Shown here: positions 35,770-58,696 of the stretch, piece by piece
How the letters are laid out: each line of letters starts with the position of its first letter
Position numbering within the stretch: the first letter of the stretch is position 1
Source: a virus
Taxonomy: Duplodnaviria > Caudoviricetes
Strand: one strand, 5' to 3'
Length of the DNA: 64,000 nucleotides
IMG/VR virus record: IMGVR_UViG_3300037067_018293
Location: 1 to 64,000 of that record
Program-made: the position numbers and the translations under genes
Notes under the pieces: model-generated
What the model saw: the letters and a program-made list of their open reading frames with translations, nothing else
The model's database searches: none
Told to the model about the DNA's origin: nothing

Positions 35770-35784
35770 CGTTACCTCCAGTCC

Positions 35785-35887
35785 GGCCTTGCCCCCAAAA
35801 TACCCCCGTGGTGGGGTATTTTGGGACAGCGGGGCGAATTATGGGGCAGTCCCGGAGGGCGGGTTTTTGCAGGATGTCAATACATTC
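35785..35887. repeat. Transposon left end A (TIR, palindrome, subterminal repeats)
   Basis: TGCCCCCAAAATACCCC-CGTGGT-GGGGTATTTTGGGACA, GAATTATGGGGCA, ATGTCAATACATTC. Confidence 0.85.
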
Positions 35888-36006
35888 AAATTATTCATCT
35901 TTTAAGGTTATTCTCTAGTGAGGGCTGGAAGATACTTGACGAGACCTGTACGTAGATATCATCCTTCTCGACGATCCTTGTGCCGTCAGCCCAAGGAGCA
36001 TCCAAG

Positions 36007-36705
36007 ATGTTTACCAAAGAATGCGAAATGACTCCCGTGGCTGCGGCCTGGCTGAAGGATAGCGGGCATATCGTTAGACAGGAATTTATCGTTCCGCACG
36101 GTTACGTTGATTTGGTTGGCCTTCGCTTCAACCCCGAGAATGTTCAACGGCGTCTCGCCCTCAAACAGAAGACAGCCATCGGTTCAGTATTTGGAACGCG
36201 GCTTCTCCTAAGCATTCCAGATGTTGAAGAAGGTATATCCATAACGTTAAAAGCACTGGTCAAACCCTACTCCGACATATGTTCTGAAACAAAAGTTGCT
36301 CAACAAGTTGAGAAACTAATGAAGGGACGTTTCGTAGTCCCAAAAGGCAAAGCACGATATCAGCGGGTTAATGGCTGGTTGCCCCTCCACGATAGTCTCG
36401 TGGCCATAGAGTTGAAGTTATTGCGCATCCAAGAGGTTTTGTGCCAGGCCAGAAGTAACCTCACATTCGCTGATGAGTCGTACGCTGGTCTTCCTATGGA
36501 TGTCGCCAACCGTGTCTACGCAAAAAGGGAACGTTGGGCAGAATACTTTGATACGGGGGTTGGGCTGCTTGGAGTGAGTTCACGTAAGTGTTCTGTTTTG
36601 ATTCCCAGTCGGAAGAATCTCGATAGATTATCACTAGCGTTACAAACCTATTGTGTGGAGAAGTACTGGCGTAAAGCTACAAAGGGCGAAGGCACTGCCG
36701 CATAA
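36007..36705 (+). CDS. Hypothetical protein with PD-(D/E)XK-like nuclease motifs
   Basis: RQEF..P.G.VDLVG ... AIELKL ... QA.SN..FADESY pattern. Confidence 0.5.
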   Translation: MFTKECEMTPVAAAWLKDSGHIVRQEFIVPHGYVDLVGLRFNPENVQRRLALKQKTAIGSVFGTRLLLSIPDVEEGISITLKALVKPYSDICSETKVAQQVEKLMKGRFVVPKGKARYQRVNGWLPLHDSLVAIELKLLRIQEVLCQARSNLTFADESYAGLPMDVANRVYAKRERWAEYFDTGVGLLGVSSRKCSVLIPSRKNLDRLSLALQTYCVEKYWRKATKGEGTAA

Positions 36706-36748
36706 ACTGCTCTGCGACTATTTGCGGTTGTCTTGCTTGGTTCTCAAT

Positions 36749-37339
36749 GTCCCCAATCGGGGAGGGTGGAATCCCTCGCCTTTTAGGCGAAGCCTTCAGG
36801 AGGCTTGCGGTACGATGCTGGGATGAGCGACTACCGACGGACCTCGCATACGGTATGCCTCCTGCACTACCACTTCGTGTTCATCCCGAAGTACCGCAAG
36901 CCGGTCTTGCGGGGCGACGTGGGAAAGCGGCTGAAGGAGCTGATACAGGAGATTTGTCGCAGCAACGACATAGCCATCCTGAAGGGGCACATCAGCCCGG
37001 ACCACGTGCACCTGCTCTTGGATGTGCCACCGAGTCTTGCCCCGAGCCGAGTGATGCAGGCCATCAAGGGTAAGACCTCGCATCATCTGATGCGTGACTT
37101 TCGGGCGCTGCGCAAGGAGTTCTGGGGTCGGCACCTCTGGGCACGTGGGTACTTCGTGGCATCGAGTGGCAATGTCACGGACGACGTGATCGCCAAGTAC
37201 ATCGAGTTGCAGGGTGCCGAACCCCAGGACGACGATGATTTCAAGATCGACGAGTGAGATGGCCTGCATCGCCGGCTCGGTCTTTAGCCGACTTCAGTCG
37301 GCGGCCAATCCCCTCGCCTTTAGGCGAGGGTCGTTTAGT
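36749..37339 (+). mobile_element. IS200-type element (Y1 transposase only)
   Basis: Hairpins CCCTCGCC-TTT(T)A-GGCGA at both ends; excision restores the interrupted minus-strand gene. Confidence 0.85.
36823..37257 (+). CDS. tnpA: IS200/IS605 Y1 (HUH) transposase TnpA
   Basis: LHYHFVFIPKYR, PDHVHLL (HUH), IKGKTS, LWARGYFV, IAKYIELQ (catalytic Y). Confidence 0.95.
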   Translation: MSDYRRTSHTVCLLHYHFVFIPKYRKPVLRGDVGKRLKELIQEICRSNDIAILKGHISPDHVHLLLDVPPSLAPSRVMQAIKGKTSHHLMRDFRALRKEFWGRHLWARGYFVASSGNVTDDVIAKYIELQGAEPQDDDDFKIDE

Positions 37340-37762
37340 ATTAGAGAATGGTGTTAATTGCGTGCCTGTAACATAGGCGTTTGAGAATTGTTTGTACAGA
37401 TATCCCATTCTTTGGCTCACATTGATTTGTTCTAACTCTTTGATCCACTTATAGTAAAAGTTAGCTACCTGCTGCCTAGCTGAATCACGGTCGTACCCAT
37501 CAAAATTGTCGAGAAGTTGCTGAAGGCTGACTCTGTCTTCGCCTTCTATACTACTAATATTCTGAATTAACCAATCTCTCAAGTCATCATGGCGAACCCA
37601 CCTTCTTAGTACCTTAAGTGCCACGCGTTTCTTTGGTCCTCTGATACCAGAACCAGGAATATGGTATTGGTATGAGCTTCCAAGACCAATAGCTGGAAAA
37701 TTAGCTAGACGTCGAACCCATAAAATTAAGTTCATGCCCCAATAGGGTCCTGATACAAGACG

Positions 37763-38107
37763 ATGCCAAATAGAATTTTATGGCAAGGTACGGATCCACG
37801 TGGTATTAGTGTCTCATTATCTGAGAGCGCGTGGCAACATATTGCCGAACGTCATAAAGAAATTACAAACATTGGAATGGAACATATTTTCTCTGCAGTA
37901 GAAAACCCTGTAGAAATAAGACTCCATTCCACAAATCCATCAAGTGAACAATATGTGGGGCATCTGTTGACAAAAGGTTTTCATGCTCCTGCGACCATTG
38001 TAGTCGCGACCACTGTATCTACCGAGCCTAAGCACATTAAATCTGCTTGGATCACCAATTTGCCGGTAAAAGGTCTCTTGGTATGGTCAAAGGATTCTGA
38101 GCCATGA
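37763..38107 (+). CDS. Putative toxin of a type II TA-like pair (DUF4258/RelE-like)
   Basis: ISVSLSESAWQHIAERH...AVENP pattern; coupled to a DUF2283-like gene. Confidence 0.5.
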   Translation: MPNRILWQGTDPRGISVSLSESAWQHIAERHKEITNIGMEHIFSAVENPVEIRLHSTNPSSEQYVGHLLTKGFHAPATIVVATTVSTEPKHIKSAWITNLPVKGLLVWSKDSEP

Positions 38108-38382
38108 TAGACTTCCAGTATGATCAGTCAAGTGACGTGCTCTACATTAGTGATGGTGTTCCTCACCCCGCTTTGAGCGAAGAAATAGCCCCAGGCGTAC
38201 TACTTAGATTCGACACTGTTACCAATGATCCAACCGCAATAACAGTCTTGGATTTCCTGTCACATTTCATTCCACAAAATATTATTGCGACACTCTGTGA
38301 TTCTCGTATTCCATCTAATTTGGTCACGTTCCTACGTGACGTTTCACAAGAGCCAAATCTCCTTACTTCCTACACAAAATAA
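38104..38382 (+). CDS. DUF2283-like putative antitoxin
   Basis: FQYDQSSDVLYI...SEEIAPGVLLRFD...AITVLDF. Confidence 0.65.
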   Translation: MIDFQYDQSSDVLYISDGVPHPALSEEIAPGVLLRFDTVTNDPTAITVLDFLSHFIPQNIIATLCDSRIPSNLVTFLRDVSQEPNLLTSYTK

Positions 38383-38429
38383 ATTTTGACAAATATTACA
38401 CAAAAACAATATCATTTTTAACATTCTCG

Positions 38430-39206
38430 TCATCTAAATTTAGAATTAAAATAACTATCAATCGTTTTGACTCGCCGCTGCCAATCCGAAGCTTTCAATC
38501 CACTATATTTTCGTTCGACGGGCTTCAATGCTGTCGCCCCATTTTCATATACCAGTCGGAACGTGCCGGGGAACTCAAATAACGCAAGACTCTCTTTCGT
38601 GCCAGCGTAGAATAGTTTGTCCTCTAATTCAAACAATAGATATCTTTGCTCTCCGGCTGGTACTACATAATCCCCGACCATCGTGAACTTACGTGACGTC
38701 GTGGCGGGTCCTGCAAAACTAAGCAATGGACTTTTGAAAAGAAACATTACCAGCCCTTGATATTCTAGTTGTTTTATTAGTAGCGGTTTTTGAGAGCCAT
38801 TCGCCAGATCAACGATAATGCCTATTCTATAGGTATAGTTCGGCAATGCTTTATGCACGTCGGGTAGGATCGTGACCGCCTCGATTCTGCGGGTGAATAC
38901 CTTTACAGCATTACGCTCCCGCAGTTCTCTTCTTCGTCGCTCATCCTCTTTTACAGATATCCAGCACCGGCGTAGGGCAATCATAACACCAAGAACAGAG
39001 AGAATAAGGGCCGCTACTGATAGATGTTTTCGCCACCTAATACCTACCCGGCGTAAGTATTGTGGACGGTTTGGAACATCTAACAATTCAGGTGATGCTG
39101 GTTTCTTTTCCTCAACAATATCTTCGCTAGTCGGGGAGTTTGATTTCTGCAAATCCAATACAGGAATCTTTCTCTTCGATTGCAGTTCAAAGTAGACGAG
39201 GCTCAT
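38430..39206 (-). CDS. Single-TM hypothetical protein
   Basis: HLSVAALILSVLGVMIAL hydrophobic segment. Confidence 0.6.
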   Translation of the reverse strand: MSLVYFELQSKRKIPVLDLQKSNSPTSEDIVEEKKPASPELLDVPNRPQYLRRVGIRWRKHLSVAALILSVLGVMIALRRCWISVKEDERRRRELRERNAVKVFTRRIEAVTILPDVHKALPNYTYRIGIIVDLANGSQKPLLIKQLEYQGLVMFLFKSPLLSFAGPATTSRKFTMVGDYVVPAGEQRYLLFELEDKLFYAGTKESLALFEFPGTFRLVYENGATALKPVERKYSGLKASDWQRRVKTIDSYFNSKFR

Positions 39207-39237
39207 CGTCGATGTGCATAATTAGGGCGTAGCTGAG

Positions 39238-39471
39238 TCATCCCTTCGGAGGATGCGGATCGTTCCCTGGCGCCACCGTGTCCTTGCTGCGGATTTTTCC
39301 GTCTCGTCCCTTTATCGTAACGTCTCCACCGCCCTGCTGTTTCTCCATTGCCTTGGCGGCCTTGACGGCTTCGGCTTGTGTATCGTGTACACTGGAAGCT
39401 CTGTCTGAGTCGTTGCGTTTGTTTTCCCATGAACCGTCTGGCCGTCTGGATACCGTTCTACCTTTGGACAT
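39238..39471 (-). CDS. DUF2188-family protein (copy 1)
   Basis: DGSWENKR..RAS..HDTQAEAV..A...GG..V.IKGRDGKIR..DT...GNDP.PP.G. Confidence 0.85.
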   Translation of the reverse strand: MSKGRTVSRRPDGSWENKRNDSDRASSVHDTQAEAVKAAKAMEKQQGGGDVTIKGRDGKIRSKDTVAPGNDPHPPKG

Positions 39472-39487
39472 GCAGCACCTCTGCGCC

Positions 39488-39584
39488 GGCCTTGCCCCCA
39501 AAATACCCCCGTGGTGGGGTATTTTGGGGCAGCGGGCAGAATTATGGGGCAAGCGTTGCAACTGGTCGGTATGTCAATACATTC
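39488..39584. repeat. Transposon left end B
   Basis: Same TIR, palindrome and ATGTCAATACATTC motif as end A. Confidence 0.85.
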
Positions 39585-39772
39585 TCGGATTTCCTCACAA
39601 GACAACATCCGTGGTAAAACCTAGGAATAGCGGCCAGGACGTTATTCTTTAGTAGGACGGTAATGTTCTTGAGCGCACACCAATATTCTTAAATTTTCCA
39701 TATTCGGGCAAAACGGCATGGCACCCCGCCTTCATTTTTGCTACTCTGGACAAACCTAAAGAAAATCTGGAG

Positions 39773-40882
39773 ATGGCGAGAATGAATCCTCACGACGCAG
39801 CCCGTGCGGCCAGGAACAAAATTGTCAGCGGCGGGAAATTTGGATTGGTCCGTTCTGGGGCCGCTACTAAGTTGGACCATCCCTACGGAGAGCCCGCCGA
39901 CAAGCTATTCCGGCTGTGGGACGTCCTCGACGATAATAAATCGAGAAGAGATCCTATTCACTGTTCGCCCGATGCACCATTCATCCGATATATCGATTCT
40001 TGGTACGACTATCCGTTTATTGCACAGGCGAGACTTAACACTCCAACCTGGGAACAATATAACAAAAGCTGTCTAGTGCAGGTTGGTGCTTGTTGTGGTT
40101 TCAATTGCTGGCACTGTTACTTGGCACAAGACCACATAAGAGGCGTTTCAAACGACATGGAATTCCTTGAACCGCGCGAAATTGTTGACCGCTACTTGGA
40201 GGAACGCGAACACCAGAGCAACAAACAAGATTCATCGCCAATTGATTTGTTTAGGATTAGTGGTGGCGAACCATTTCTTGTACCTGATTTGATACTAGCG
40301 GTTTTGCAGGAACTGCGCCAACGAGGGCTCGACGACAAGATTTTCCTTTGGGCCGAAACGAACATGGCACCCCTATATAGAGACTTCGTAGGTGATCACA
40401 ACTTTCTGGATGACATACAGTTCGACTTGAAGAGCCTCGATGCGTTCAAAAACTTCGCACTGCATCCTTGCTTTCATGGAATCAGCAAGGACGACTACTT
40501 GAACAACACAGCACTGACCGATTTCACGTTTGATGGATTCCTACAGGCATTTGATCTGCTAGTTCAATCGGGCATTGATATTTATCCGACGTTCGGATCT
40601 AACGTCAACAAGCAATTATCCGTCGAACCCTTCTATAACGCCGTCAAAGCTATCAGCCCCGAAGCACCCAAGCGGTTCGCTCTGATAGAGTACAAGAGTG
40701 GCTACGAAACAGTGCAAGACCGCTTGAAAATGAATTCTGGAACCGGAGCCTTAGAGAAGGCCGCCAAACTGATCAATATCGTCGGCCAGAAGAACCAAGT
40801 CATTGAGACGTGGGATCGACTTCTGAAGGCCGACTTCGGAGCTGGCTATCCAGTGGCACCTAGACACGAGGTGACGTTATGA
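39773..40882 (+). CDS. Radical SAM protein
   Basis: CGFNCWHC (CxxxCxxC), FRISGGEP, WAETN. Confidence 0.85.
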   Translation: MARMNPHDAARAARNKIVSGGKFGLVRSGAATKLDHPYGEPADKLFRLWDVLDDNKSRRDPIHCSPDAPFIRYIDSWYDYPFIAQARLNTPTWEQYNKSCLVQVGACCGFNCWHCYLAQDHIRGVSNDMEFLEPREIVDRYLEEREHQSNKQDSSPIDLFRISGGEPFLVPDLILAVLQELRQRGLDDKIFLWAETNMAPLYRDFVGDHNFLDDIQFDLKSLDAFKNFALHPCFHGISKDDYLNNTALTDFTFDGFLQAFDLLVQSGIDIYPTFGSNVNKQLSVEPFYNAVKAISPEAPKRFALIEYKSGYETVQDRLKMNSGTGALEKAAKLINIVGQKNQVIETWDRLLKADFGAGYPVAPRHEVTL

Positions 40883-42078
40883 CATCAACCAATGAATGCA
40901 AAATTCTTCTCTTTAAGAATTTCTATTATAATAGTTTTGCGAATAAAATTCAAGAGTATATGAGCCTTCCTTTGGGCTTCTATTGCGAATACTCAGCGCC
41001 AGACGAGTACTTTGTTTCCCAAGATATAGACAGTCTGGCAAAGGGTAACCTCAATGGAGCCGAAGTCTGGATCTGCTGTACGCAGTATCCACATAAGGAC
41101 CAATCCATATCAACACAGAATATTGATACCATGCTAGACTCTCGCGTGCGGTTTGTACCGCTGAGAAAAGCAACATTGCTGAGTTCTGTTCACAATAAAG
41201 ACGCGAAAAAGGTTACGTTATCTTTATGTCTAGGAGGTTATCTAAAATGCAATGATTGTACGCAGTTCACTAGGTCTTTATTTCTCAGTGATACTGCGAA
41301 GGCAAACCTTCCCGTGTACTACAAATGCAGTACCGATGCGCAGGATACGCGATTTAGCGTTTGCTACCTTCTTGAAAAGGCGAATCAGCAATATAACGAT
41401 CTCAGTGAAATCGTTGAAGAGAACGATGCCTCAGAAAACTCGTTTGAGGCCGCAGTAAAGATGCTGAGAGATAACAAGCTTAGTACTCCTGAATCTATTG
41501 CATTAGATTATTACATATTCTACAAGATGAACTTCAAGGACACTGATGGTAAATCACTTGTCTTCAATACAAAAACAAAAAATATGGTCGTATCAGCGAG
41601 TAAATCCTTAGTCCTAGACATGCATATTGATGCAACTTCCAGTGAATACTCACACGTGGCGTCAACAAACACGCTAGACGTTCTCGATGATATGAAACCA
41701 CTTGTGGAAATCGAAATAGATTCTCGCTCCAGTGGGCATCTAATAATAAAAACGGCGACCATCGTAGTAACGTCTGATGCAGCAAAAGCAAAACTGGTAG
41801 TAAGATCAAAGCGACGTGATATGAAAAGTTACTCCAAATACTTGCCGGATGATTTTAGGTGCTTTGGTAACATGGAGTTGAATCTCGCAGTTCACAAAAG
41901 GGTACGGTGGGCCTCGGTTCTTAGTTCTGGTCTCGGGCGCCTGGCTGTATGGTCTGCCATTTCTATTGCATTATTCAAAGAGAGCTTAGATATGCATATG
42001 AATTGGCTACCTTGTACAATTGTTGCCGTAGGCATTATTGACGTTCTGTTTTCTTCATATCGAGAACTACGTTCTTGA
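40879..42078 (+). CDS. Hypothetical protein with C-terminal two-TM tail
   Basis: ATGA-coupled to the radical SAM gene; hydrophobic LAVWSAISIALF and WLPCTIVAVGIIDVLF. Confidence 0.65.
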   Translation: MTSTNECKILLFKNFYYNSFANKIQEYMSLPLGFYCEYSAPDEYFVSQDIDSLAKGNLNGAEVWICCTQYPHKDQSISTQNIDTMLDSRVRFVPLRKATLLSSVHNKDAKKVTLSLCLGGYLKCNDCTQFTRSLFLSDTAKANLPVYYKCSTDAQDTRFSVCYLLEKANQQYNDLSEIVEENDASENSFEAAVKMLRDNKLSTPESIALDYYIFYKMNFKDTDGKSLVFNTKTKNMVVSASKSLVLDMHIDATSSEYSHVASTNTLDVLDDMKPLVEIEIDSRSSGHLIIKTATIVVTSDAAKAKLVVRSKRRDMKSYSKYLPDDFRCFGNMELNLAVHKRVRWASVLSSGLGRLAVWSAISIALFKESLDMHMNWLPCTIVAVGIIDVLFSSYRELRS

Positions 42079-42117
42079 GAAGTAATTACAGGCCATGCCT
42101 CAGTGTTTGGTTTCAGA

Positions 42118-43332
42118 TCAGGCTGAGCAAACACACGCGGGCGATGCTTTGGGTTTGTCCTTGCTTCGGCAAGGCAAACACCAAGATTGGTCATAAGCCT
42201 CGCCATCCACCACCCTTTCGCCAAAGTCTTCCATGAAATAAAATACATGATATCCTGCCATCGTCGAACAATGAGGACAGGATTTAATTGCTCGACCGTC
42301 TATGTTTCGATGCAGAGATCGGTCCAGCCTCTCGCCGCAAAACGAGCAACTTGCTCCGATAGAGTCTCCACAATTCTCCATTTCACTCCTCCTTGGTGTG
42401 CTCTTTCTTTTGAAGGCTGCTGCGTGACCGTAGGCAATGGCCTGAGCCAGCAAAGCGTCGTTCATTCCTGGAAGAGATCTGGCTCGTCGATACTCCTCTT
42501 GTGCATCAACAGCAGAGAACAGAGTGTTGTCAGTGCAGACGCACGCGCGTATCCCACGTCGAAGCCATTTCGGCAGAGGATGGGTCGATAAGTCTGGTAT
42601 AGCCCCGACGTGCCAATTAGAGGTGATGTTGGCCTCTAGGGTTACGCCACGGGCAAGGACGAGATTTACGATGTCGGGATCATTCAGTACTGTGGTGCCA
42701 TGACCAATACGGTCTGCATGGAGTAGCTTGATGGCCATAAATATTTCGCCAGGAGGACGCCCCTCGCTGGCGTGAACGGTGCGCCCAAGACCTGTATCCC
42801 GTGCCATCGTAAAAGGTTCTACATAGTCCTGCAGGCGATAGACGTGCCCCTTGGCCGGTCCACCAGCTAGGTCAATGCCTACTACCCCAGGTCGTGACTT
42901 GGCCACTAATACGAGGTCCGTTAACACTGTAGGTGGCTCACCGTACAGCCCGCATAGCACCAGCCCAGCCCTGCCGTCTATGCCTTCAATCGCCGCATCG
43001 ACAATTTCGGCTGGCGTCGCGCCTCGGTGAAGCTGGGGAGCGAAACGGATCTCCAGCGTGGTGACGCCCTCGGCAGCGGCATCTTCGCAGATATCTGCCG
43101 CCACACGCTTCACAGCATCTGGTTGCTGCAGTACAGACAGGGTGAGAGTGAAGCAGGCGAGAGCATCGGCCAGGCCCATGCCTGGAAGAAATACAAGGTT
43201 GGCTGGCACTGCGATGCCCAGGTGCGCGGCCAGATCGTCGAGCGTGGTGCGGCGAAGTGACCCGTCCAGATGCCGATGCAGATCGGCAAGTCCGATCGGC
43301 GAGTTGGCTTCAATCGGCACAATCTGATCCAC
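42118..43332 (-). CDS. add: Adenosine deaminase with C-terminal Cys-rich extension
   Basis: DLHRHLDGS, EIRFAPQ, TVHASE, RIGHG, CTDN. Confidence 0.9.
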   Translation of the reverse strand: MDQIVPIEANSPIGLADLHRHLDGSLRRTTLDDLAAHLGIAVPANLVFLPGMGLADALACFTLTLSVLQQPDAVKRVAADICEDAAAEGVTTLEIRFAPQLHRGATPAEIVDAAIEGIDGRAGLVLCGLYGEPPTVLTDLVLVAKSRPGVVGIDLAGGPAKGHVYRLQDYVEPFTMARDTGLGRTVHASEGRPPGEIFMAIKLLHADRIGHGTTVLNDPDIVNLVLARGVTLEANITSNWHVGAIPDLSTHPLPKWLRRGIRACVCTDNTLFSAVDAQEEYRRARSLPGMNDALLAQAIAYGHAAAFKRKSTPRRSEMENCGDSIGASCSFCGERLDRSLHRNIDGRAIKSCPHCSTMAGYHVFYFMEDFGERVVDGEAYDQSWCLPCRSKDKPKASPACVCSA

Positions 43333-43360
43333 TGCTCATTATCCCTGATATCCTTGATAA

Positions 43361-43594
43361 CTACCCCTTTGGAGGATGGGGATCGTTCCCTGGTGCGACC
43401 GTGTCCTTGCTGCGGATTTTTCCGTCTCGTCCCTTTATCGTAACCTCCCCGCCACCCTGCTGTTTCTCCATCGCCTTCGCGGCTTTGATCGCCTCGGCCT
43501 GGGTGTCATGAACGCTTGACGCCTTGTTGGCATCGTTCCGCTTGTTTTGCCAGGAGCCGTCCGGCCGTCTGGATACCGTTCTACCTTTGGACAT
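43361..43594 (-). CDS. DUF2188-family protein (copy 2)
   Basis: Near-identical to 39238-39471. Confidence 0.85.
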   Translation of the reverse strand: MSKGRTVSRRPDGSWQNKRNDANKASSVHDTQAEAIKAAKAMEKQQGGGEVTIKGRDGKIRSKDTVAPGNDPHPPKG

Positions 43595-43836
43595 GCATCA
43601 CCTCTGCGCCACTGAAACGTGACGAGTTACCCGGTACGGTACAGCCGTTCAGTAATGGTGTCCACTTTATTTTTTCGCCAGATCTGGCTCCGGGCATTGT
43701 GGCGGTATCTTAGGGTGATTTTGTACTTCGCGGGAACGGAACGGTCTGAACTGCCCCTCGCCCGTGATAAACTGGCTCATGCGATGCGGACAGAATTCAT
43801 GCAACGAGCGTGTCACTGGGCGCGCAACGCAACCCT

Positions 43837-44730: not shown

Positions 44731-44784
44731 CATCGTCCTATCAAGCCTCACTATATCCCAGGTTCCCTTGGCCTCTCTTGAACC

Positions 44785-49359: not shown

Positions 49360-49406
49360 GTAGTTTGGTTTTTGTGTCTGCCGGCGAGAAGTAATGTACG
49401 AAAAAA

Positions 49407-52172: not shown

Positions 52173-52387
52173 ATCACACCTGCTGATTGCCGATTTAGCA
52201 ACAGGCTGATAACAGCACAAAAATCACAAATTCTCAAGCGATTAAAAATGGTGGGCAAATCACCCCTAACCTAATAAATATTAACCTATTTACGCTACTT
52301 GTGGCAACGCGGTCCCAGCGTTTGCCTCGCCGTCCAGAGACCCGCCCAGGATCCCAGCATCTACTCGTGGACAAAGACTCAGGTGGT

Positions 52388-52738
52388 TTACTCAACCAGC
52401 CGCAGCGTAGGGCACGATGCGTCCTTCACCACCACGGGTGCAGCGTCCTCGGCGGCAGTGGGATCGTCCTCCAGATCGGGCAAGTAGCCGCAGTGCGGAC
52501 AAGCGCCAGCACGGTAGCGACCACCCAGCAGGTCATCGATGGGCGTGTCGGCCAGGCGCGCGACGCGAAACGCCAACGTCGGGGTAACGGCGCGACCGCG
52601 AGCGTTCGCGATCTTTTCCAGGGAGTCCGGGCCGTAGTGCAGCGCCGCCGCCAACGGGATCCATCCTCCAGTTTCCCGTCGAAGGTAATGGAGCGTGGCG
52701 CGAACTCGCTGTTGCTCTTCTTTCGTGAGGTCCGACAT
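52388..52738 (-). CDS. HTH-type transcriptional regulator with C-terminal CPHC
   Basis: MSDLTKEEQ...LAAALHYGPDSLEKIAN...TPTLAFRVARLA..IDDLL; GAGGT RBS. Confidence 0.6.
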   Translation of the reverse strand: MSDLTKEEQQRVRATLHYLRRETGGWIPLAAALHYGPDSLEKIANARGRAVTPTLAFRVARLADTPIDDLLGGRYRAGACPHCGYLPDLEDDPTAAEDAAPVVVKDASCPTLRLVE

Positions 52739-52740
52739 CG

Positions 52741-54021
52741 TTACCTCGAAAACTCGACCGACGCGGGCACCGGAGCATCGGCGTCGATCCCAAACTCCGT
52801 GATGGCGTGGACGATGCACGCGAGGTTGTGGCACAGCACCTTGCACAGCACTTCGTTGACCTGAGCGGTCTGGGATTTTGATCGGACGGCGCTGCCGAAC
52901 TTGGACTTGATCATCCACATGGTGGTCTCGACGTTGCTGCGGCGATGGTAGTGGGAAAGGAAATCCTCGCTCCGCAGAGAGAAATGCGCCCACATGCGAC
53001 GCCAGTGTGGCGAACTGCTGATCGCCAGGCTGTTGGACTTGAACGGGATGAACGGCACGGCCCCCACGGCCTCGATGGCCGCGAGATTCTTCTTGGAGAG
53101 GTACGCCTTGTCGGCCGACACTTCCTTGACGTTGAATTTCCGCACCGTCTTGTTGAGTAGCTCGGGCAGCACGGGGCAATCGCCTTCAGCAGATACCTTG
53201 GCGCTCGTCACGACGTTCGTGGCGGTGCCGATCATGACGTGCAGCTTGACCCACGCGTGCTTGGCCTTGAGCTTCCCGTGTTTCTGATCGAACCAGCGAT
53301 CATAAGTCACGGTGGAGAACCCGGTTGAATCCTGAGCGAACTGTCCCGCGACGTTCTCGACTTCGGCCAGGGGCGCGGCGCTCTCCTCAATCAGCCTCGT
53401 CAGGATCTTGGTGGTGTCATCATGCTCCAGAGTCCGGAAAATGGAGTTGTAGTGCGGCGCCTTGTCCAGCAGGCCCCGCTCAGCACAGTCACGAATGTCC
53501 GTGGAGGCCCGGCGCCCCGACATCGTGGTGTAGATCTTCATGACGGCCGAGAAGACCTTGTCGCGGAGCCGTAGGGGTGGACGTCCGGCGCCGGGCTTGC
53601 GCTGGGGCTCCTCAATGCCCTCACACAGCGACTTCAGCAGTAGGGCCACACGGGCCTTCTCGGTCGTCTGGGCGGCGTTGTAGGCGGGCCAGTTCTGTGG
53701 GTACGCCTTGCGCTTGGTGGGCTCCTTGGGCGCCTCCGTGGGGTTCACGGTCCCCTCCCACGCGAGCCAGAACCAGACCGCCTCCTGGTGCTTGCAGCGC
53801 AGGCACCGTAGCTCGTAGTCGGGGCACGTACAGGTCTCGTCCACCAGGTCCACGACGTACGTGGAGGCCACACCACCGGGCGTCTGGGACGGCACCACGT
53901 ACTTGGCCCCAACCTTCCGGATGCCCCCCTGTGCCGCGATCTGGCGTCCCCGCTCCTCTCGGGTGGTCGTGAGGGGCTGGAACTCGGTGACCATGGTGTC
54001 GGACTGAAGTGCATGTTCCAT
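52741..54021 (-). CDS. IS5-family (IS903-like) DDE transposase with N-terminal SWIM-type zinc finger
   Basis: CTCPD...CKH (SWIM); QDSTGF, KHG...WVKLH, SADKAY, YHRRSNVETTM..IK.KFG. Confidence 0.88.
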   Translation of the reverse strand: MEHALQSDTMVTEFQPLTTTREERGRQIAAQGGIRKVGAKYVVPSQTPGGVASTYVVDLVDETCTCPDYELRCLRCKHQEAVWFWLAWEGTVNPTEAPKEPTKRKAYPQNWPAYNAAQTTEKARVALLLKSLCEGIEEPQRKPGAGRPPLRLRDKVFSAVMKIYTTMSGRRASTDIRDCAERGLLDKAPHYNSIFRTLEHDDTTKILTRLIEESAAPLAEVENVAGQFAQDSTGFSTVTYDRWFDQKHGKLKAKHAWVKLHVMIGTATNVVTSAKVSAEGDCPVLPELLNKTVRKFNVKEVSADKAYLSKKNLAAIEAVGAVPFIPFKSNSLAISSSPHWRRMWAHFSLRSEDFLSHYHRRSNVETTMWMIKSKFGSAVRSKSQTAQVNEVLCKVLCHNLACIVHAITEFGIDADAPVPASVEFSR

Positions 54022-54042
54022 GTTGGTGCTCTCTTGATTCTG

Positions 54043-54110
54043 TTGTACCCCATTAGGCCCACACTGTCAAGTCGTAATGTGGTTGACTTGTGGTTTTGTT
54101 GGGATACACT
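54043..54110. promoter_or_regulatory. Divergent overlapping promoters (tnp / RHH gene) with CCACA-N14-TGTGG inverted repeat
   Basis: Minus strand TTGACA-N17-TACAAC; plus strand TTGACT-N16-TACACT; inverted repeat at 54059-54082. Confidence 0.6.
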
Positions 54111-54116
54111 AGCGGC

Positions 54117-54302
54117 ATGACGAACCAAGAGAAGAAGCGGCGAAAGCCAGAAAACATTAGGAAAACTGAGTACCTGCGGGTGCGGGTCTCGGAGGAACAG
54201 AAGGACGTGATGCAGAGGGCTGCCAACCAGGCCGGGATCACCTTGTCGGCCTGGGCGGTGGAACGCTTACTCCGCACCGCTCGGGAGGAAGTGCCGAATT
54301 AG
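54117..54302 (+). CDS. Ribbon-helix-helix (DUF1778/MobC-like) DNA-binding protein
   Basis: YLRVRVSEEQKDVMQRAANQAGITLSAW. Confidence 0.75.
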   Translation: MTNQEKKRRKPENIRKTEYLRVRVSEEQKDVMQRAANQAGITLSAWAVERLLRTAREEVPN

Positions 54303-54417
54303 AAAGCGATTCTCGTAACTTGGCGTATACATGAGAAAACCATTGACTTTCGGCCGTGTCGTGCTAGGTTGATGATGTTTCATCGAGGTGATGTAGACAG
54401 GAAAAAAGCTAAAGAAT

Positions 54418-54501
54418 TGGGCGCGGCGGGACTTGAACCCGCATTGGTGCTACCCAGCCGGATTGCAGATCCGGTGCGTTTACCAGTTTCGCCACACGCC
54501 C
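54418..54501 (-). tRNA. tRNA with Leu-type long-variable-arm body and atypical anticodon loop (UCUGCAA; UGC in standard register)
   Basis: Acceptor GGGCGTG/CGCGCCC+A73, D-arm GCGAAACTGGTAAACGC, stem CCGGA/TCCGG, variable hairpin, T-arm GCGGG-TTCAAGT-CCCGC; no encoded CCA. Confidence 0.8.
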
Positions 54502-54505
54502 GATA

Positions 54506-54576
54506 TGGTGGAGATGTCGGGAGTCGAACCCGAAGGTCACGGATTTAAAGGCCAGACCTGCGACCCTGCCATCCCC
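54506..54576 (-). tRNA. Degenerate tRNA-like gene with encoded CCA
   Basis: Acceptor GGGGATG/CATCTCC-A-CCA and T-arm TCGGG-TTCGACT-CCCGA are clear; D and anticodon arms are weak (loop CTTTAAA). Confidence 0.55.
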
Positions 54577-54634
54577 GATTTTCTAGAGACCCCCGTTGTT
54601 TGCAGCAGCGGGGGTTTCGCTTGTTAAGTGTTGA

Positions 54635-54991
54635 TTATTCGTTCTCCTCCCTGATTGTCTCCCACAATTTGGCGCCAACTTTCTGGACGAGGCCACGCTT
54701 TGCTGCACGAGATAACCATGACGACACGTTTAGTGGATCAACATCATAGCCTTGCTTCTCAAGTTGCTCCTGCAAACCATTTCTCGTGAAAGGAGACGAC
54801 GCCGCGTGCACTAATGTCGTGGCAGCTTCAGTCCAAGGCTGTTTCTGGTCGGCATCTTGCTTAGGTGCTGGTGGTGTCACTGGAATCTTCGCGACCAAAA
54901 TCTTGTAGGTCTCTCGAAGGTGATTCAGTTCACCTTCTCGTGTAAGGATCTCTTCAGCCAGCATTTTGATCAAGTCGTGTGGATTGGACAT
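54635..54991 (-). CDS. Small coiled-coil plus winged-HTH-like protein
   Basis: MSNPHDLIKMLAEE...VSSWLSRAAKRGLVQKVG..LW. Confidence 0.6.
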   Translation of the reverse strand: MSNPHDLIKMLAEEILTREGELNHLRETYKILVAKIPVTPPAPKQDADQKQPWTEAATTLVHAASSPFTRNGLQEQLEKQGYDVDPLNVSSWLSRAAKRGLVQKVGAKLWETIREENE

Positions 54992-55133
54992 TGGCAACCT
55001 CATTACCGTAGTTCTAACGGTAAGGTGGACCAATGGCGTCGTCAAGTTCGAAAGTTGTCTCGTGCAAATATTTCTTTGCACGCGACATGTCGCTGCGTTG
55101 TCAGGTATCCCAATAAATATCGTGCATAACCAG

Positions 55134-55240
55134 GAATGTATTGACATTACAAGACGTTGACTGCAGTCATGTTTCACGTCTAATCTATTTTGAGGCAGGC
55201 GACAGAATTTTGGGGCAGGAGGACATTTTGGGGCAAGGCC
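55134..55240. repeat. Transposon right end C
   Basis: GAATGTATTGACAT ... TATTTTGAGGCAG..GAATTTTGGGGCA..ATTTTGGGGCAAGGCC. Confidence 0.85.
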
Positions 55241-55341
55241 CCCTGTGCCGCGATCTGGCGTCCCCGCTCCTCTCGGGTGGTCGTGAGGGGCTGGAACTCG
55301 GTGACCACGGTGTCGGACGGCAGGGAATTCGTGTTGGCCAT
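55241..55341 (-). pseudogene. Truncated 5' fragment (~33 codons) of a second SWIM-DDE transposase gene
   Basis: Near-identical to ~53927-54021 and its promoter; cut exactly at right end C. Confidence 0.85.
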
Positions 55342-55430
55342 GTTGGTGCTCTCTTGATTCTGTTGTACCCCAATAGGCCCACATTGTCAAGCAAAATGTG
55401 GTTGACAGCGTAGTTTTTTCGGGGTACATT

Positions 55431-55637
55431 ATGTCCATGGATACGAAACCAATCCAGCGTCGTAAGTCTGCGGAAAAAAGAAAAGAAAAGTTTCTGCGGG
55501 TACGGGTGTCAGATCAACAGAAGGAACTGATCGACACCGCCGCCAATTTGGCGGGCATTACGGTTTCGGCTTGGGTGTTGGAGCGACTACTTCAGATCGC
55601 GAGGAAGGAAGTGGCGGCGAGGACTCGCCCGCCCTAG
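55431..55637 (+). CDS. Ribbon-helix-helix protein, paralog of 54117-54302
   Basis: FLRVRVSDQQKELIDTAANLAGITVSAW; same divergent promoter layout (CCACAT...ATGTGG at 55379-55401). Confidence 0.75.
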   Translation: MSMDTKPIQRRKSAEKRKEKFLRVRVSDQQKELIDTAANLAGITVSAWVLERLLQIARKEVAARTRPP

Positions 55638-55647
55638 AGGAAGACCA

Positions 55648-57042
55648 ATGCAGACTCGTTACGCCTTCAGCTTGACTAGGGTATGGCAGCACTACCAAAC
55701 CAGAGACTTTGCGGTGGTGTCGGCGTACTTCCCAGGAGATCCTGAGAATATTGCTCGGCACATCAAACTGAAGGAAACGGTTCTCGGGATGGGGTATGGC
55801 TTCGTCGAGATAAAAGGACATTGGGTCGAGACTGAGGAGCCTAATGTCGGTCAGGAGATGGACGAGTACAGTCTATTTGTCCCTGACGCAAAACTAGATG
55901 ACGCAGCGTATTGGGCAAGCGGCCAGTTTCACGACAACAAAATACAATCCACTTTTATATATGCTGATCAAAACAGTATCTATGAGCTTCGGACTCAAGA
56001 TGGGCAAATTGTCCGACAATACACAAAACTAGAAACAAATTTCCGTGCGTGCTGGACCTCATGGTCTGAGCACCGAGGACGTCGTTGGCGGTACTCCAGC
56101 GTTACGTGGTTTATGGGGGAACCTCCTCCACTACACCCTCAAGGTTGGGCCGAACACCGCTACGCTACTGTTTGGCGCGACCAGGATCCGCATGAGTTTA
56201 TCGACGGTCCTAGACTGCCGACGAAACGTCCACGTTATTCCAAGGAAACTAATTACCGCCCTGGGCCTAGTAGAATGAAACACATCTACAGCATCATGTC
56301 GAGGCTGTGGCCTGATTTCCAGTCCCTGTGGTACGAGGTCGAACAGCATGCTGGTCAGATTACTGGCGCAGTATTGTTTCACCACCGTGATGTCTACGCG
56401 TTTACCTCATGGGACTGCCCAATCTCGGACCAGCAGATCAATTCTGAGTTACGGCAAAACTTGGTTTTGTTTTCGTCGCTTGCCGAAGTTGTGGACTGGA
56501 TCGGGCGACTGAAGAACCAGCAAGGTGATCTGGCCACGGAACTGGAGCGTGCTCTTGGTGCGCGTTTAGGAAAGCAAGATTTTGTCATTTTGCCCGACCT
56601 CACGTTGGTGTCGGGGATGGCCAGAGGCAAGGTGATGCTAGATCAAAACATAAACGATCTAAAGAAGCCGCTCGAAGACCAGAATTTCCGAGTCATTGTT
56701 CCCGAGATGCTGCAATATGCGAAAAAGCCAGACGATAAGCTGGCAGCGGAACATTTGTCCAACAGTATTTTCATCACAGAGAATTACGACGACTTTGTTC
56801 CGCTGGCCAGAAAACACGAGTTTGGCATCATTGGGGTGCCACAACACGCCAAAGTAGACCGAGATAAAATCGCGTCGTTGATTTCCAAAGCAGTTGTTCG
56901 TCACAAGGTGTGGTCGCAGACGCGGCCGTTCAAGCTCTTGATACACGGGGACGGCACGTCTGAGTTTCGTTATCTCGACGCCGACCCTACTGAAATAAAG
57001 ATTCCAACCAAAATATTGAAGCCGAAGAGGAAGCGAAATTAA
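55648..57042 (+). CDS. Multidomain protein with C-terminal PIN-like (DUF5615-type) domain
   Basis: C-terminal VMLDQNI...DDKLA...FITENYDDF; N-terminal AVVSAY...LGMGYGF..IKGHW.E...SLFVP resembles a phage DUF3293-like domain. Confidence 0.55.
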   Translation: MQTRYAFSLTRVWQHYQTRDFAVVSAYFPGDPENIARHIKLKETVLGMGYGFVEIKGHWVETEEPNVGQEMDEYSLFVPDAKLDDAAYWASGQFHDNKIQSTFIYADQNSIYELRTQDGQIVRQYTKLETNFRACWTSWSEHRGRRWRYSSVTWFMGEPPPLHPQGWAEHRYATVWRDQDPHEFIDGPRLPTKRPRYSKETNYRPGPSRMKHIYSIMSRLWPDFQSLWYEVEQHAGQITGAVLFHHRDVYAFTSWDCPISDQQINSELRQNLVLFSSLAEVVDWIGRLKNQQGDLATELERALGARLGKQDFVILPDLTLVSGMARGKVMLDQNINDLKKPLEDQNFRVIVPEMLQYAKKPDDKLAAEHLSNSIFITENYDDFVPLARKHEFGIIGVPQHAKVDRDKIASLISKAVVRHKVWSQTRPFKLLIHGDGTSEFRYLDADPTEIKIPTKILKPKRKRN

Positions 57043-57114
57043 TCGTTATGACGACGAACCCGGTATTACTATTTGGTGAATATCGTTATTCTTTAGTAAC
57101 AGGAGAAACAGTAT

Positions 57115-57681
57115 ATGCAGAACGAAGACACTGAGGAATTCCGCCGTTATGTTCGTCGTACAGTCTTGCACGGTTGGCTGAATGCGCGGTTGGCACAGCG
57201 GTTCTACCAACACGAAGCTTCAAGAAATACGTTTTTATATCGCTTGCTTGCGTGCATTGCGTTGGTTTTGTCTGCTGCCGCTGTTTGTACCGTGATAGGC
57301 GAGACTACGCCCTGGGCTACTGGAATTGCCGCCGCACTAGCTGCCGTCATCAGCATCGTAGCGTCGCAATTTGGCTTCCAAACCACGAGCATGATGTTCA
57401 GCAAGGCAGCAGCAGTTAACTCAAGTGTTGAAGCTGAATGGAGAATTCTGTGGAGTAGGACTGGATCTGACGTTGAAGACTACGCCGTCATTGTCCGAGA
57501 GACTGATGGGCTGAACATTCGTAGTAGGCTTGTCTCAGAACTGGTTGCGGAGTATCGTCAGGACCGTGCACTGCTGGAACGGTTCCAGAGTGAGATCGTG
57601 GCGTCGCTTGGTCCGACCGACATCATCACGGAGACCCTTGATGGCAACACCCCGCAAACCCAAGCCGCCGAAGCCTCGTGA
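57115..57681 (+). CDS. SLATT-like two-TM protein
   Basis: Two adjacent TM helices followed by a helical cytoplasmic tail. Confidence 0.6.
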   Translation: MQNEDTEEFRRYVRRTVLHGWLNARLAQRFYQHEASRNTFLYRLLACIALVLSAAAVCTVIGETTPWATGIAAALAAVISIVASQFGFQTTSMMFSKAAAVNSSVEAEWRILWSRTGSDVEDYAVIVRETDGLNIRSRLVSELVAEYRQDRALLERFQSEIVASLGPTDIITETLDGNTPQTQAAEAS

Positions 57682-57940
57682 GGGTGGCTCACGTCCTCCT
57701 GGCTCCCCGCCCAGTACTTATCCGCCTGCTCCTTGGCCTGAACCTCAACCACCGCCTTCCCCTCGTCGCCGTCGTCCTGCCCAATAAGTCTACTTTCTTA
57801 TCGCGCTGGCTTTATGCAAGCGGAGTCATGGGTACCAAACGGTGGGTTACCCCTGTCCGTTTGTGCCGGTGCTGCTGGAGGGAACCGTTGGCTTGGGAGG
57901 TTTCTTCGCAGGTTTGTTGGGGCGAACTCGCCCGCTACGT

Positions 57941-58507
57941 TCAGACGGCTTGCTCGGCTTCTTCGGCGGGATTTTTGTCATCGTCTTCTGACTCGTAAGC
58001 GTCGTTGGCGCGTGCTTCACAAACTTCTACCAACGCGTCGTCGCGAGGATCCTGTGGCTCTGCGGCCGAGACGATTTGCCAGCATTGCTTCAAGTTTTCC
58101 ATCTCGTGCTCGATGGTGTCAAGGTCCAGGTTTTGTGGTCTGGTTTCGAGGCGGCAGAACAAACCATCGAACCGAAGCTCTAGGAAGCCTGCCCAATCCT
58201 GCGCCTTCTGAAATCCAGCGAATCGCTCGCGCCACTTAAGACCCCAGACAAACGTCCCGACCACCGGACTGACGATAGATAGGCCAGCCAGCACGATGGC
58301 CATGGTCTCGACCTTGGGGATCCATAGCAGAAGGGCTGCCGTCAGGACCGCCGTGGTGCTGGCCAAGACCGATGTCCATCGGATTTTCTTTTCGATTCGC
58401 GTGGCCTGCTCACTGTTGTACTCGACGCTAAAGCGCGCGTCGCGGCGTTGGGTGTAAACGAGGTCCCGGATCTTCAGGTAGCGTGCTTCGGCCCAAGTGT
58501 TCGTCAT
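57941..58507 (-). CDS. SLATT-like two-TM protein
   Basis: Same architecture, convergent with 57115-57681. Confidence 0.6.
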   Translation of the reverse strand: MTNTWAEARYLKIRDLVYTQRRDARFSVEYNSEQATRIEKKIRWTSVLASTTAVLTAALLLWIPKVETMAIVLAGLSIVSPVVGTFVWGLKWRERFAGFQKAQDWAGFLELRFDGLFCRLETRPQNLDLDTIEHEMENLKQCWQIVSAAEPQDPRDDALVEVCEARANDAYESEDDDKNPAEEAEQAV

Positions 58508-58595
58508 GATGCTGCTCGCTTCTTAATGGTGGTGTTGAGGTTTTACCACCAATCTCGTCGGTGCTTGGCGACGTGTAATTTCGGCGGCTTGCGGT

Positions 58596-58650
58596 TATTT
58601 TGAGGCAGGCGTCGGAATTATGGGGCAAGAAGGCATTTTGGGGCAAAGCC
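58596..58650. repeat. Transposon right end D
   Basis: TATTTTGAGGCAG..GAATTATGGGGCA..ATTTTGGGGCAAAGCC followed by the TSD. Confidence 0.85.
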
Positions 58651-58661
58651 CTCCAGTCCCC

Positions 58662-58690: not shown

Positions 58691-58696
58691 GTGGAA

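Follow-up and report, generated by a model that had tools for sequence, protein, structure and literature searches.

How did a phage come to carry 22.9 kb of foreign genes between two of its own, and what moves such a block? The window analysed here, a stretch of 64,000 nucleotides of viral DNA, holds the block at positions 35785–58650. A first-pass annotation had read it as a unit transposon with IS903-like ends. We find instead that its 22,866 bp form a compound, in which one element sits nested inside a related one. We give a probability of about 80% to the reading that the block is an intergenic DDE-transposon insertion in which two members of one family are nested, with a later deletion, and that the inner enzyme may mobilise the whole.

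The insertion and its empty site

Both outer tips read GGCYTTGCCCC. The left tip, GGCCTTGCCCCCAAAAT, begins at 35785 on the plus strand; the right tip, read on the minus strand from 58650, is the reverse complement of 58635–58650, GGCTTTGCCCCAAAAT. As first noted, these matching tips are flanked by an exact 9-bp duplication, CTCCAGTCC (Table 1). The chance of such a 9/9 flank match is ~4e-6 per end pair (our own arithmetic, 4^-9).

The empty site predicted from this duplication occurs letter for letter in L126, a contig from a related phage (92–94% identical). There both flanks are contiguous and the 9-mer is present once (...CTAAACTGG GGACTGGAG GTAACGATG...). Two close relatives, also without the transposon, have flanks 95–99.8% identical. 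With the site unoccupied in a related phage, the 22.9-kb block is a genuine transposon insertion. L126 was located later, via the flanking proteins. A blastn comparison of both flanks with the phage collection had given no match, and searches of viral_contigs turned up neither the exact 24-mer of the empty site nor loci related to the helicase or the 300-aa flank protein. For the transposase and a 241-aa ORF, a look-up of the exact sequence gave no recorded entry.

The insertion lies between two phage genes, one of which encodes 186 aa and has its ribosome-binding site directly downstream of the insertion. We weighed a sigma-70 promoter reading for an outward-facing ATGTATTGACA motif and rejected it, no convincing -10 hexamer being seen. 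Portal, large terminase and helicase genes identify the host molecule as phage, in keeping with the earlier statement that the cargo had landed in a phage genome. The contig is 79 kb long, with a CheckV completeness of 33%, and looks like that of a large phage.

Two nested elements

Within the outer pair of ends we found a second pair, at 39488 (+) and 55240 (-), which spans 15,753 bp and holds the only intact transposase. The outer pair is bounded by the duplication, yet it encloses these ends and a broken second transposase, and the description as a unit transposon gives way to that of a nested compound. As had been stated, it is not a composite transposon: complete IS copies at both ends are absent, and the ends are tip-and-box arrays of 55–66 nt. 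In the outer left end, LE1, the first two boxes form a 13-nt hairpin. The outer ends keep all of their boxes, nearly identical to those of the inner ends.

The outer element is represented by two arms, 35785–39487 and 55241–58650. The right arm starts with what is left of the element's own transposase gene, and this remnant, together with the adjoining ribbon-helix-helix (RHH) gene, is 76% identical in DNA to 53925–54296. The claim that the block contains a single DDE enzyme holds for intact genes only, the 34-codon remnant being a second. The intact gene and the right end of the inner element, RE2, are 1.2 kb apart.

A simple insertion history does not fit the inner element. Its flanks match at only 7/9 positions, with no matching target duplication, and its left flank is not the remainder of the transposase gene: the last 246 nt of the outer left arm are 86% identical to 43365–43610. 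Since the inner pair lacks a matching duplication, we infer a later deletion or rearrangement at one inner end. IS903 makes adjacent deletions, and the locus resembles such events in that an inner end abuts non-matching sequence and neighbouring DNA was lost progressively, a second copy (L127, discussed below) having kept 78 bp less of the remnant. A mismatched inner flank with progressive loss is what one-ended intramolecular events would be expected to leave behind; if two copies had recombined, the outcome would look no different.

An assembler that threaded repeated ends could also have joined such pieces, in which case the 22.9 kb would not be one molecule. LE1 and the inner left end, LE2, have an exact run of 41 nt in common (our own reading of the alignments), and several Logan contigs break at the element ends. 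Against this, both outer junctions have exactly the 9-mer of which the empty site has one copy, and a chimeric join would not produce that. One independent assembly covers the LE1 junction at 100% identity, and another covers 38356–40732, including the point where the outer left arm meets LE2, also at 100%. A path swap at the shared left-end repeat would moreover produce a circular arm–LE–arm path, which is implausible. We consider an artefact of this kind very improbable.

Table 1 Ends, genes and target duplications of the compound (positions in the window)
Feature	Position	Strand	Remarks
Target duplication, left copy	35776–35784		CTCCAGTCC, 9 bp; single in L126 empty site
Outer left end, LE1	35785–35850	+	Tip GGCCTTGCCCC; boxes direct at 6, inverted at 35 and 55
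Outer left arm	35851–39487		Between LE1 and LE2
Outer left arm ORF	35980–36705	+	
Outer left arm ORF	37241–37735	-	
Outer left arm ORF	37763–38382	+	Weak DUF2283 pair
Outer left arm ORF	38430–39206	-	
Outer left arm ORF	39203–39430	-	
Inner left end, LE2	39488–39553	+	95% identical to LE1 over 66 nt; same box layout
Inner cargo, radical-SAM protein	39773–40882	+	Viperin-like matches weak, far below cut-off
Inner cargo, 399-aa protein	40879–42078	+	
Inner cargo, adenosine-deaminase-family protein	42118–43332	-	
Inner cargo, tRNA_anti-like OB-fold protein	43837–44751	-	Also in L127
Inner cargo, MmeI-type (type IIG/IIL) restriction-methyltransferase	44785–47679	-	All five MmeI domains
Inner cargo, N6/N4 DNA methyltransferase fused to Mrr-like nuclease domain	47707–49359	+	Not in L127 version
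Inner cargo, VWA-domain protein	49407–52220	-	937 aa, Cys-rich repeats; not in L127 version
HTH + zinc-ribbon gene	52388–52741	-	Downstream of transposase; conserved in related elements
Intact transposase, 426 aa	52741–54021	-	SWIM-type finger + DDE_Tnp_1 core; only intact one
Small RHH gene (NikA/RelB-like)	54117–54302	+	Divergent; part of conserved core
tRNA gene, single	54418–54501	-	84 nt; ARAGORN: Ala-TGC
Inner right end, RE2	55186–55240	-	Three direct boxes at 6, 24 and 44 from tip
Transposase remnant	55241–55342	-	Codons 1–34 of outer element's own enzyme; cut by RE2
Outer element's RHH gene	55431–55637	+	
Outer right arm	55648–58507		Identical copies in other samples
464-aa protein, outer right arm	55648–57042	+	
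SLATT/DUF4231-like gene, outer right arm	57115–57681	+	Convergent with 57941–58507
SLATT/DUF4231-like gene, outer right arm	57941–58507	-	Convergent with 57115–57681
Outer right end, RE1	58596–58650	-	Three direct boxes
Target duplication, right copy	58651–58659		CTCCAGTCC, exact 9/9 match to left copy

The transposase and its family

By its sequence, the intact enzyme is an IS5/IS903-group DDE_Tnp_1 transposase with an added N-terminal SWIM-type finger, which bears out the motifs and the fusion described in the first-pass annotation. The CxC...CxH finger residues (C64, C66, C76 and H78), the catalytic triad (D231, D304 and E365) and the signature Y358-R361-E365-K372 are invariant across 30 homologs. 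Pfam PF01609 (DDE_Tnp_1) matches with an E of 1.7e-14, while the SWIM score of the window copy, 17.9, is below the Pfam gathering score of 19.6. The best NCBIfam model, NF033579 (IS5_2), gives 114.5 bits, below its cut-off of 140; IS903B itself scores 352.8 bits. Among curated relatives IS903 comes closest, with 24% identity; the alignment runs along the whole length of IS903B, and the motifs coincide in it.

Eukaryotic Mutator-like elements (MULEs) likewise combine a SWIM-finger transposase with target duplications of 9 bp. We rejected a Mutator-like reading of the window element: its catalytic domain is DDE_Tnp_1 (IS4/IS5 type), Pfam found no Mutator/IS256-type domain, and, unlike in MULEs, the finger is N-terminal.

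Elements of the IS903 group have 9-bp repeats and measure 1050–1054 bp (PMC3281130). The SWIM-DDE family has in common with IS903 the DDE_Tnp_1 core, the Y-2-R-3-E-6-K signature, GGC(T)TTG tips and the 9-bp duplication. The IS903B tips are GGCTTTG (read from L123), and the tip of one relative, L034, begins GGCTTTGTTTAATAAG where IS903B has GGCTTTGTTGAATAAATC. Unlike IS903, the enzyme has an extra N-terminal region of ~90 aa with the SWIM-type finger. The two ends of family elements differ from one another and have three spaced boxes each, whereas those of IS903 consist of a single short inverted repeat; RHH and HTH genes are conserved as two DNA-binding accessories; and the elements extend over 2.8–22.9 kb with passengers, against ~1.05 kb and one ORF.

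The transposase has more than 7,600 homologs. At 40 of 116 homologous loci there is a complete element with GGCTTTGC tips and a perfect 9-bp duplication, the arrangement in which SWIM-DDE homologs had been predicted to occur; when 9-mers shifted 10–20 nt from the tips were compared as an offset control, perfect duplications numbered 0. These 40 elements measure 2,755–7,783 bp. Four hallmarks define the family: the tips read GGCTTTGC, the target is duplicated over 9 bp, the two ends are asymmetric, and a core of three genes (RHH, transposase and HTH) is conserved. In the window, the start of the HTH gene and the stop of the transposase gene have 1 nt in common (read from the coordinates). Each end has three copies of a box of ~11 nt, direct at 6, 24 and 44 at one end, and at 6 (direct), 34 (inverted) and 54–55 at the other. 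This architecture is conserved, and the box sequence covaries between lineages, together with transposase divergence. The commonest passengers are methylases and restriction genes. Genes of the relatives were read from a scan of all ORFs of at least 150 aa; longest-ORF calls picked antisense ORFs in GC-rich DNA. One relative, L020, resembles the outer element, with a right end at 93.6% and the 5' part of its transposase undisrupted up to codon 129, after which the contig ends. Another, L009, resembles the inner element (transposase 92% in amino acids). The literature that we searched gave no description of this SWIM-DDE cargo family, which is large and apparently uncatalogued.

Could a different enzyme move these ends, with the SWIM-DDE gene a mere passenger? 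The transposase is present in 40/40 duplication-bounded elements, a set that was found by transposase search and in which each element contains it. The box sequence changes along with the enzyme, and the tips and the duplication length match those of its nearest curated relative, IS903. A Pfam search of the ten largest ORFs of the element found no other transposase or recombinase family. We regard the passenger reading as extremely improbable.

In transporter IS (tIS) and unit transposons, too, one inverted pair of ends encloses a transposase and its passengers, with no flanking IS needed, and the 40 duplication-bounded relatives have this layout. The published tIS concept covers the IS1595 and IS66 families only; the SWIM-DDE family is related to IS5/IS903, and the window copy is a nested compound of two members. 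In end anatomy only, the family recalls Tn7 and Mu, with several spaced, oriented repeats that resemble binding sites and are arranged differently on the left and right. Tn7 and Mu make a 5-bp target duplication, against 9 bp here, and the ten largest ORFs of the element include no rve-type transposase or ATPase partner.

Probable movement of the compound, and its cargo

In the history that we propose, the outer element would have received its inner relative (39488–55240) within its transposase gene. The rest of that gene would have been lost later, when DNA at the inner left end was deleted or rearranged, leaving the inner ends without a matching duplication. The inner transposase would bind the boxes, as their covariation suggests, and would cut at the GGC tips with 9-bp staggered target cuts like those of IS903. 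It may act on either pair of ends, so that the whole 22.9 kb could move in one piece.

A second insertion site bears on this last step. In L127 and L133, from two other samples, RE1 and the right arm are 99.97–100% identical to the window and are then followed by a different flank, L133 confirming the flank seen in L127. L127 has the same nesting, at 99–100% identity from ~53730 to 58650. That this nested right half recurs at a second site makes it probable that the compound was moved in one piece, and the nesting seems to predate at least one insertion. Left of ~53700, L127 is only ~90% identical to the window, and 47774–52381 is absent; both compounds are therefore mosaics, not simple copies. 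The L127 contig (coverage 1.2x) ends inside the element, before the left end of the second-site copy. An exact search of viral_contigs for the predicted left junction of that copy (a left end with the AACCTATAG duplication) and for RE1 returned none.

The same final structure would result from two successive events in place, in which the CTCCAGTCC duplication arose with the arrival of an autonomous outer element of ~7–9 kb, the inner one entered it later and the 22.9 kb never moved whole. The remnant indicates that the outer element formerly encoded a transposase itself, L020 carries the right end of the outer lineage with an undisrupted 5' part of that gene, and all 40 other complete elements are only 2.8–7.8 kb long. 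Yet in L127 the nested right half (RE2 against the remnant, the right arm and RE1) is 99–100% identical beside another RE1 flank, and the two-step history would need two independent nesting events with a common orientation, at points only 78 bp from each other. We think that history unlikely and favour movement of the compound as a unit.

Through the insertion, the phage acquired a cargo of genes for conflict and DNA modification: the MmeI-type enzyme (1123 bits against the PADLOC model REase_MTase_IIG), the methylase–Mrr fusion, the deaminase, the radical-SAM protein and the SLATT-like proteins. The cargo first listed stands as regards the MmeI-type restriction-modification enzyme, the methylase–Mrr fusion and two SLATT-like genes; there is one tRNA gene, not several, and the toxin–antitoxin entry comes down to a sub-threshold DUF2283 match.

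A wider proposal, for which we hold the odds to be about even, is that of an abundant IS903-derived cargo family that acquired a DNA-binding SWIM-finger module, two accessory regulators and asymmetric, Tn7/Mu-like multi-site ends. Such a family would carry methylases, restriction systems and further conflict genes back and forth between phages and their bacterial hosts, Myxococcota and Chloroflexota among them, with a single inner transposase moving nested compounds of more than 20 kb.

At this locus, a DDE transposon brought an island of more than 20 kb of restriction-modification and conflict genes into an apparent large phage and, with the unoccupied site in hand, this is a clear case of a phage gaining defence or competition genes by transposition. 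The 40 duplication-bounded copies define a family in which the IS903 design, a 1-kb IS with one gene, is stretched into elements that have complex ends and carry several genes. Their covarying box arrays lead to direct hypotheses on the evolution of end recognition, and the family could supply compact transposases for large cargo.

Outer ends and the empty site

The window is phage DNA and carries portal, large terminase and helicase genes; its source IMG/VR record has 78,961 bases and a CheckV completeness of 33%. The first-pass annotation had described a 22.9-kb unit transposon with matching inverted tips and an exact flanking 9-bp repeat. Both tips, LE1 on the left and RE1 on the right, are found as described, and the 9-mer CTCCAGTCC stands immediately before LE1 and after RE1. 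A composite transposon, already dismissed at first pass, is rejected because no IS copies flank the element.

The annotation had also predicted the sequence of the empty site. A 300-aa protein beside the right flank has 99%-identical copies on two contigs, L124 and L125, where the helicase lies within 0.7 kb of the 300-aa gene with no transposon between. These contigs do not retain the insertion site itself, because another gene, of 88 aa, stands where the window has its 186-aa gene. A search with the 186-aa protein reached L126, a Logan contig from sample SRR33452761, with a spacer of 52 bp between the 300-aa and 186-aa genes. This spacer reads ...CTAAACTGG GGACTGGAG GTAACGATG..., and the predicted site is present in it letter for letter. 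By blastn, L126 667-2394 matches window 60378-58650 at 93.8% and L126 2385-3488 matches 35784-34686 at 91.6%; the two pieces share the duplicated 9-mer and one base. Independent assemblies reproduce parts of the occupied structure: contigs match 35170-36590, spanning the LE1 junction, and 38356-40732, spanning the junction of the outer left arm with the inner left end, at 100% identity, and a third is identical to 55238-57925. The phage is present in samples ERZ27247358, ERZ27250894 and SRR18595300, among others.

Small cassettes between the 300-aa gene and the helicase vary among close relatives, each with its own upstream region: the 186-aa gene in the window and L126, the 88-aa gene in L124 and L125 (window 35170-35784 and 58660-58696; L124 10904-11255). 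For the 186-aa gene, the transposon separates a promoter-like TTGACG...TATTAA from the ribosome-binding site. L126 1-670, which codes for a resolvase-domain protein, is 95.5% identical to a distant part of the window (11215-11884). This DNA lies left of the shared block, and gene order therefore differs between the two phages.

Positions of the transposon ends, phage genes and cargo in the window
Feature	Position	Strand	Details
Portal gene	25959-28247		
Large terminase gene	28604-30625		
Helicase gene	32612-34897		
Left 9-mer	35776-35784		CTCCAGTCC
LE1, outer left end	35785 (first base)	+	tip GGCCTTGCCCCCAAAAT
LE2, inner left end	39488	+	
Transposase P0001	52741-54021	-	426 aa
RE2, inner right end	55240	-	
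RE1, outer right end	58650	-	tip GGCTTTGCCCCAAAAT, reverse complement of 58635-58650
Right 9-mer	58651-58659		CTCCAGTCC
Inner cargo: radical-SAM protein			
Inner cargo: 399-aa protein			no assigned function
Inner cargo: adenosine-deaminase-family protein			
Inner cargo: tRNA_anti-like OB-fold protein			
Inner cargo: complete MmeI-type restriction-methyltransferase			1123 bits, PADLOC type IIG model
Inner cargo: N6/N4 methylase fused to Mrr-like nuclease			
Inner cargo: VWA protein			937 aa
Inner cargo: one tRNA	54418-54700 region	-	84 nt, Ala-TGC by ARAGORN
Outer arms: small genes			no assigned function
Outer arms: DUF2283 pair			weak
Outer arms: 464-aa protein, no assigned function			
Outer arms: two SLATT/DUF4231-like genes			

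A second element nested inside the first

The outer ends and their duplication stood, but the reading as a simple unit transposon did not: searched by pattern, the whole record proved to contain four transposon ends, not two, with a second left-type and right-type pair (LE2, RE2) inside the first. LE1 and LE2 are 95% identical over 66 nt, and RE1 and RE2 87.5% over 56 nt. Directly outside RE2 is a second copy of transposase codons 1-34, together with the region upstream of it and an RHH gene in divergent orientation (55239-55616, 76% DNA identity to the intact counterpart at 53925-54296). Since this remnant abuts RE2, the inner element of 15,753 bp sits in the former transposase gene of the outer element.

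The inner element's flanks, CTCTGCGCC and CCCTGTGCC, match at only 7/9 positions. We considered whether the DNA left of LE2 is the remainder of the broken outer transposase gene; this was ruled out, as it is instead an 86% homolog of 43365-43610. With such flanks and a left side unrelated to the broken gene, the inner element thus has no clean duplication, and one must suppose either that its left end was later deleted or rearranged or that two copies recombined.

The window has exactly four copies of the 11-mer ATGTATTGACA (34906-34916, 35875-35885 and 39572-39582 on the minus strand, 55136-55146 on the plus strand): one upstream of the helicase, and one, pointing outward, some 90-105 nt in from each of three of the four transposon ends. 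Allowing one mismatch gives five matches in the window against 0.76 expected. Another copy precedes the 88-aa cassette gene of L124 (10913-10923). The 11-mer may be a shared phage promoter or regulator site; no clear -10 hexamer was seen by it. L124 further contains a 1.5-kb insert coding for an RRXRR+HNH protein (8518-10003) where the window is empty (59603-59605), with 75-83% identical copies at window 18068-19555, 2583-3912 and 25286-25880. Near-identical phages here differ by the presence of a second mobile element, an insertion polymorphism. Two ORFs matching the PHROG transposase family phrog_506, at 11857-13125 (+) and 23932-25197 (-), resemble TnpB/IS605 OrfB genes. Mobile elements of several kinds are present in the phage.

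Transposase, family and cargo

The first reading of P0001, the element's only intact transposase, as a SWIM-fused IS5/IS903-type enzyme is borne out. It matches Pfam DDE_Tnp_1 (E 1.7e-14), and its SWIM finger scores slightly under the Pfam gathering threshold. In an alignment of 30 homologs, the finger residues C64, C66, C76 and H78 (CxC...CxH), the catalytic D231, D304 and E365, and the set Y358-R361-E365-K372 are invariant. Its best NCBIfam model, NF033579, gives 114.5 bits against a cut-off of 140, compared with 352.8 bits for IS903B of a Klebsiella plasmid. Plasmid matches by tblastn are IS903B, ISVa2 and ISAha2; in a pairwise alignment P0001 spans residues 6 to 308 of IS903B (24% identity, E 2e-14). 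The IS903B element has a length of 1,057 bp and tips GGCTTTGTTGAATAAATC; members of the IS903 group that were captured in Paracoccus measure 1050-1054 bp and have 9-bp repeats (PMC3281130). The model match, the alignment and the 9-bp repeats of the group together place the enzyme, as judged from its sequence, among relatives of the IS903 group, with a finger of about 90 aa added at the N terminus. The transposase has a small RHH gene diverging from it, and at its stop codon an HTH + zinc-ribbon gene begins; both genes recur in relatives.

At E <= 0.001 the homologs of P0001 number more than 7,600, and many of them have precomputed SWIM and DDE_Tnp_1 annotations. From viral, genome and metagenome collections we took 116 homolog loci and searched them by script for inverted GGCYTTG-type tips with similar first 16 nt and identical 9-mers outside. 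The proposal that SWIM-DDE homologs lie between such tips was borne out by 40 complete elements, against none when the compared 9-mers were displaced 10-20 nt. They measure 2,755 to 7,783 bp; the search reached ends within 10 kb of the transposase and may have overlooked larger relatives. At loci L009, L010, L014 and L019 it found no pair of ends. On a conserved plan, the two ends of an element are asymmetric: one has three direct boxes of about 11 nt at 6, 24 and 44, and the opposite end has boxes at 6 (direct), 34 (inverted) and 54-55 (either orientation). Box sequence depends on lineage (TGCCCCAAAAT, TGCACATAAAT, GCAACGCATT, TGTTCCAAAAG and others) and spacing is constant. We take the boxes to be putative transposase-binding sites, for which this lineage covariation is the best available evidence. 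By kinship with IS903, the transposase would bind the boxes, cleave at the GGC tips and make 9-bp staggered target cuts.

Named relatives are mostly Myxococcota (Kofleriaceae, Polyangia, Haliangium) and Chloroflexota MAGs, and 20 loci are on viral contigs. On one contig (L097 100-7726) several family members lie back to back with one common 9-bp target (CTACACAAC or its complement); at 3924-3934 and 7637-7647 an element end is followed by the 9-mer and the next element's tip, which suggests repeated insertion at one site or beside a resident end. Another locus (L007 2084-2169) has an 86-bp miniature element of two box-bearing ends only, with an 8/9 duplication (GCTCTCCGT vs GCTCTCCGC); it resembles a MITE-type derivative of this family.

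The element would operate as an IS903-type transposon does. It departs from the IS903 group in two defining features, size with gene content and the curated score, and the family adds complex ends and accessory genes. By its enzyme it belongs with neither Mutator-like nor Tn7/Mu-like elements. Transporter IS are limited to the IS1595 and IS66 families (TnCentral preprint). A literature search, which did not reach ISfinder, found no published description of this family, a result that does not disprove one elsewhere.

As for cargo, the restriction-modification enzymes and SLATT-like genes listed at first pass are present; the several tRNA genes come down to one, and the toxin-antitoxin system to the weak DUF2283 pair. 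A tRNA-like 3' piece adjoins the tRNA (54418-54700, -), with weak, sub-threshold tmRNA matches (E ~0.01). The VWA gene contains about three tandem diverged repeats (50331-50663; ~105 nt each, ~70% identical) encoding Cys-rich CG..C..C repeats. The 464-aa and SLATT-like proteins have identical copies in other samples. Among 107 ORFs of at least 150 aa in 38 relatives, transposase excluded, the commonest Pfam families are DNA methylases (N6_N4 in 6 ORFs, N6_Mtase in 3, D12 in 2, C5 in 1), and the restriction-related domains BstXI, Mrr and HSDR_N recur.

History of the compound element

Both lineages have relatives elsewhere. A Polyangia MAG locus (L020) has a right end 93.6% identical to RE1 and a transposase gene that is closest to the outer remnant in its 5' part and reads without disruption as far as codon 129, where the contig ends; for this reason an outer lineage with a working transposase probably exists. 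Another locus, L009, represents the inner lineage on these comparisons, its transposase being 92% identical to P0001 in protein and its right end matching RE2 at 94.5%.

On two further contigs, L127 and L133, AACCTATAGAGG..., which is the end of a TnpB element, comes after RE1, with amidase, primase and sigma-factor genes farther out. The window's record does not contain this flank; RE1, 99.97-100% identical, therefore occupies a second site in samples ERZ15185060 and ERR2683165. The nesting seen in the window is also present in L127: its RE2 tip abuts the outer transposase remnant, 78 bp nearer the start codon. L127 is 99.3-100% identical to the window from ~53730 to 58650. To the left of a breakpoint within the transposase gene the identity falls to ~90%, and 47774-52381 is missing from L127.

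On the simplest reading, the nesting would have arisen once and the compound would then have reached the second site via its outer ends, with a further small deletion beside RE2 and recombination with a diverged relative afterwards. We put the probability that the compound moved as a unit at roughly 60%, the second-site copy having been recovered without its left end and L127 at 1.2x coverage. If it did so, the second-site copy would be expected to begin with an LE1-like end preceded by AACCTATAG and to contain the inner element.
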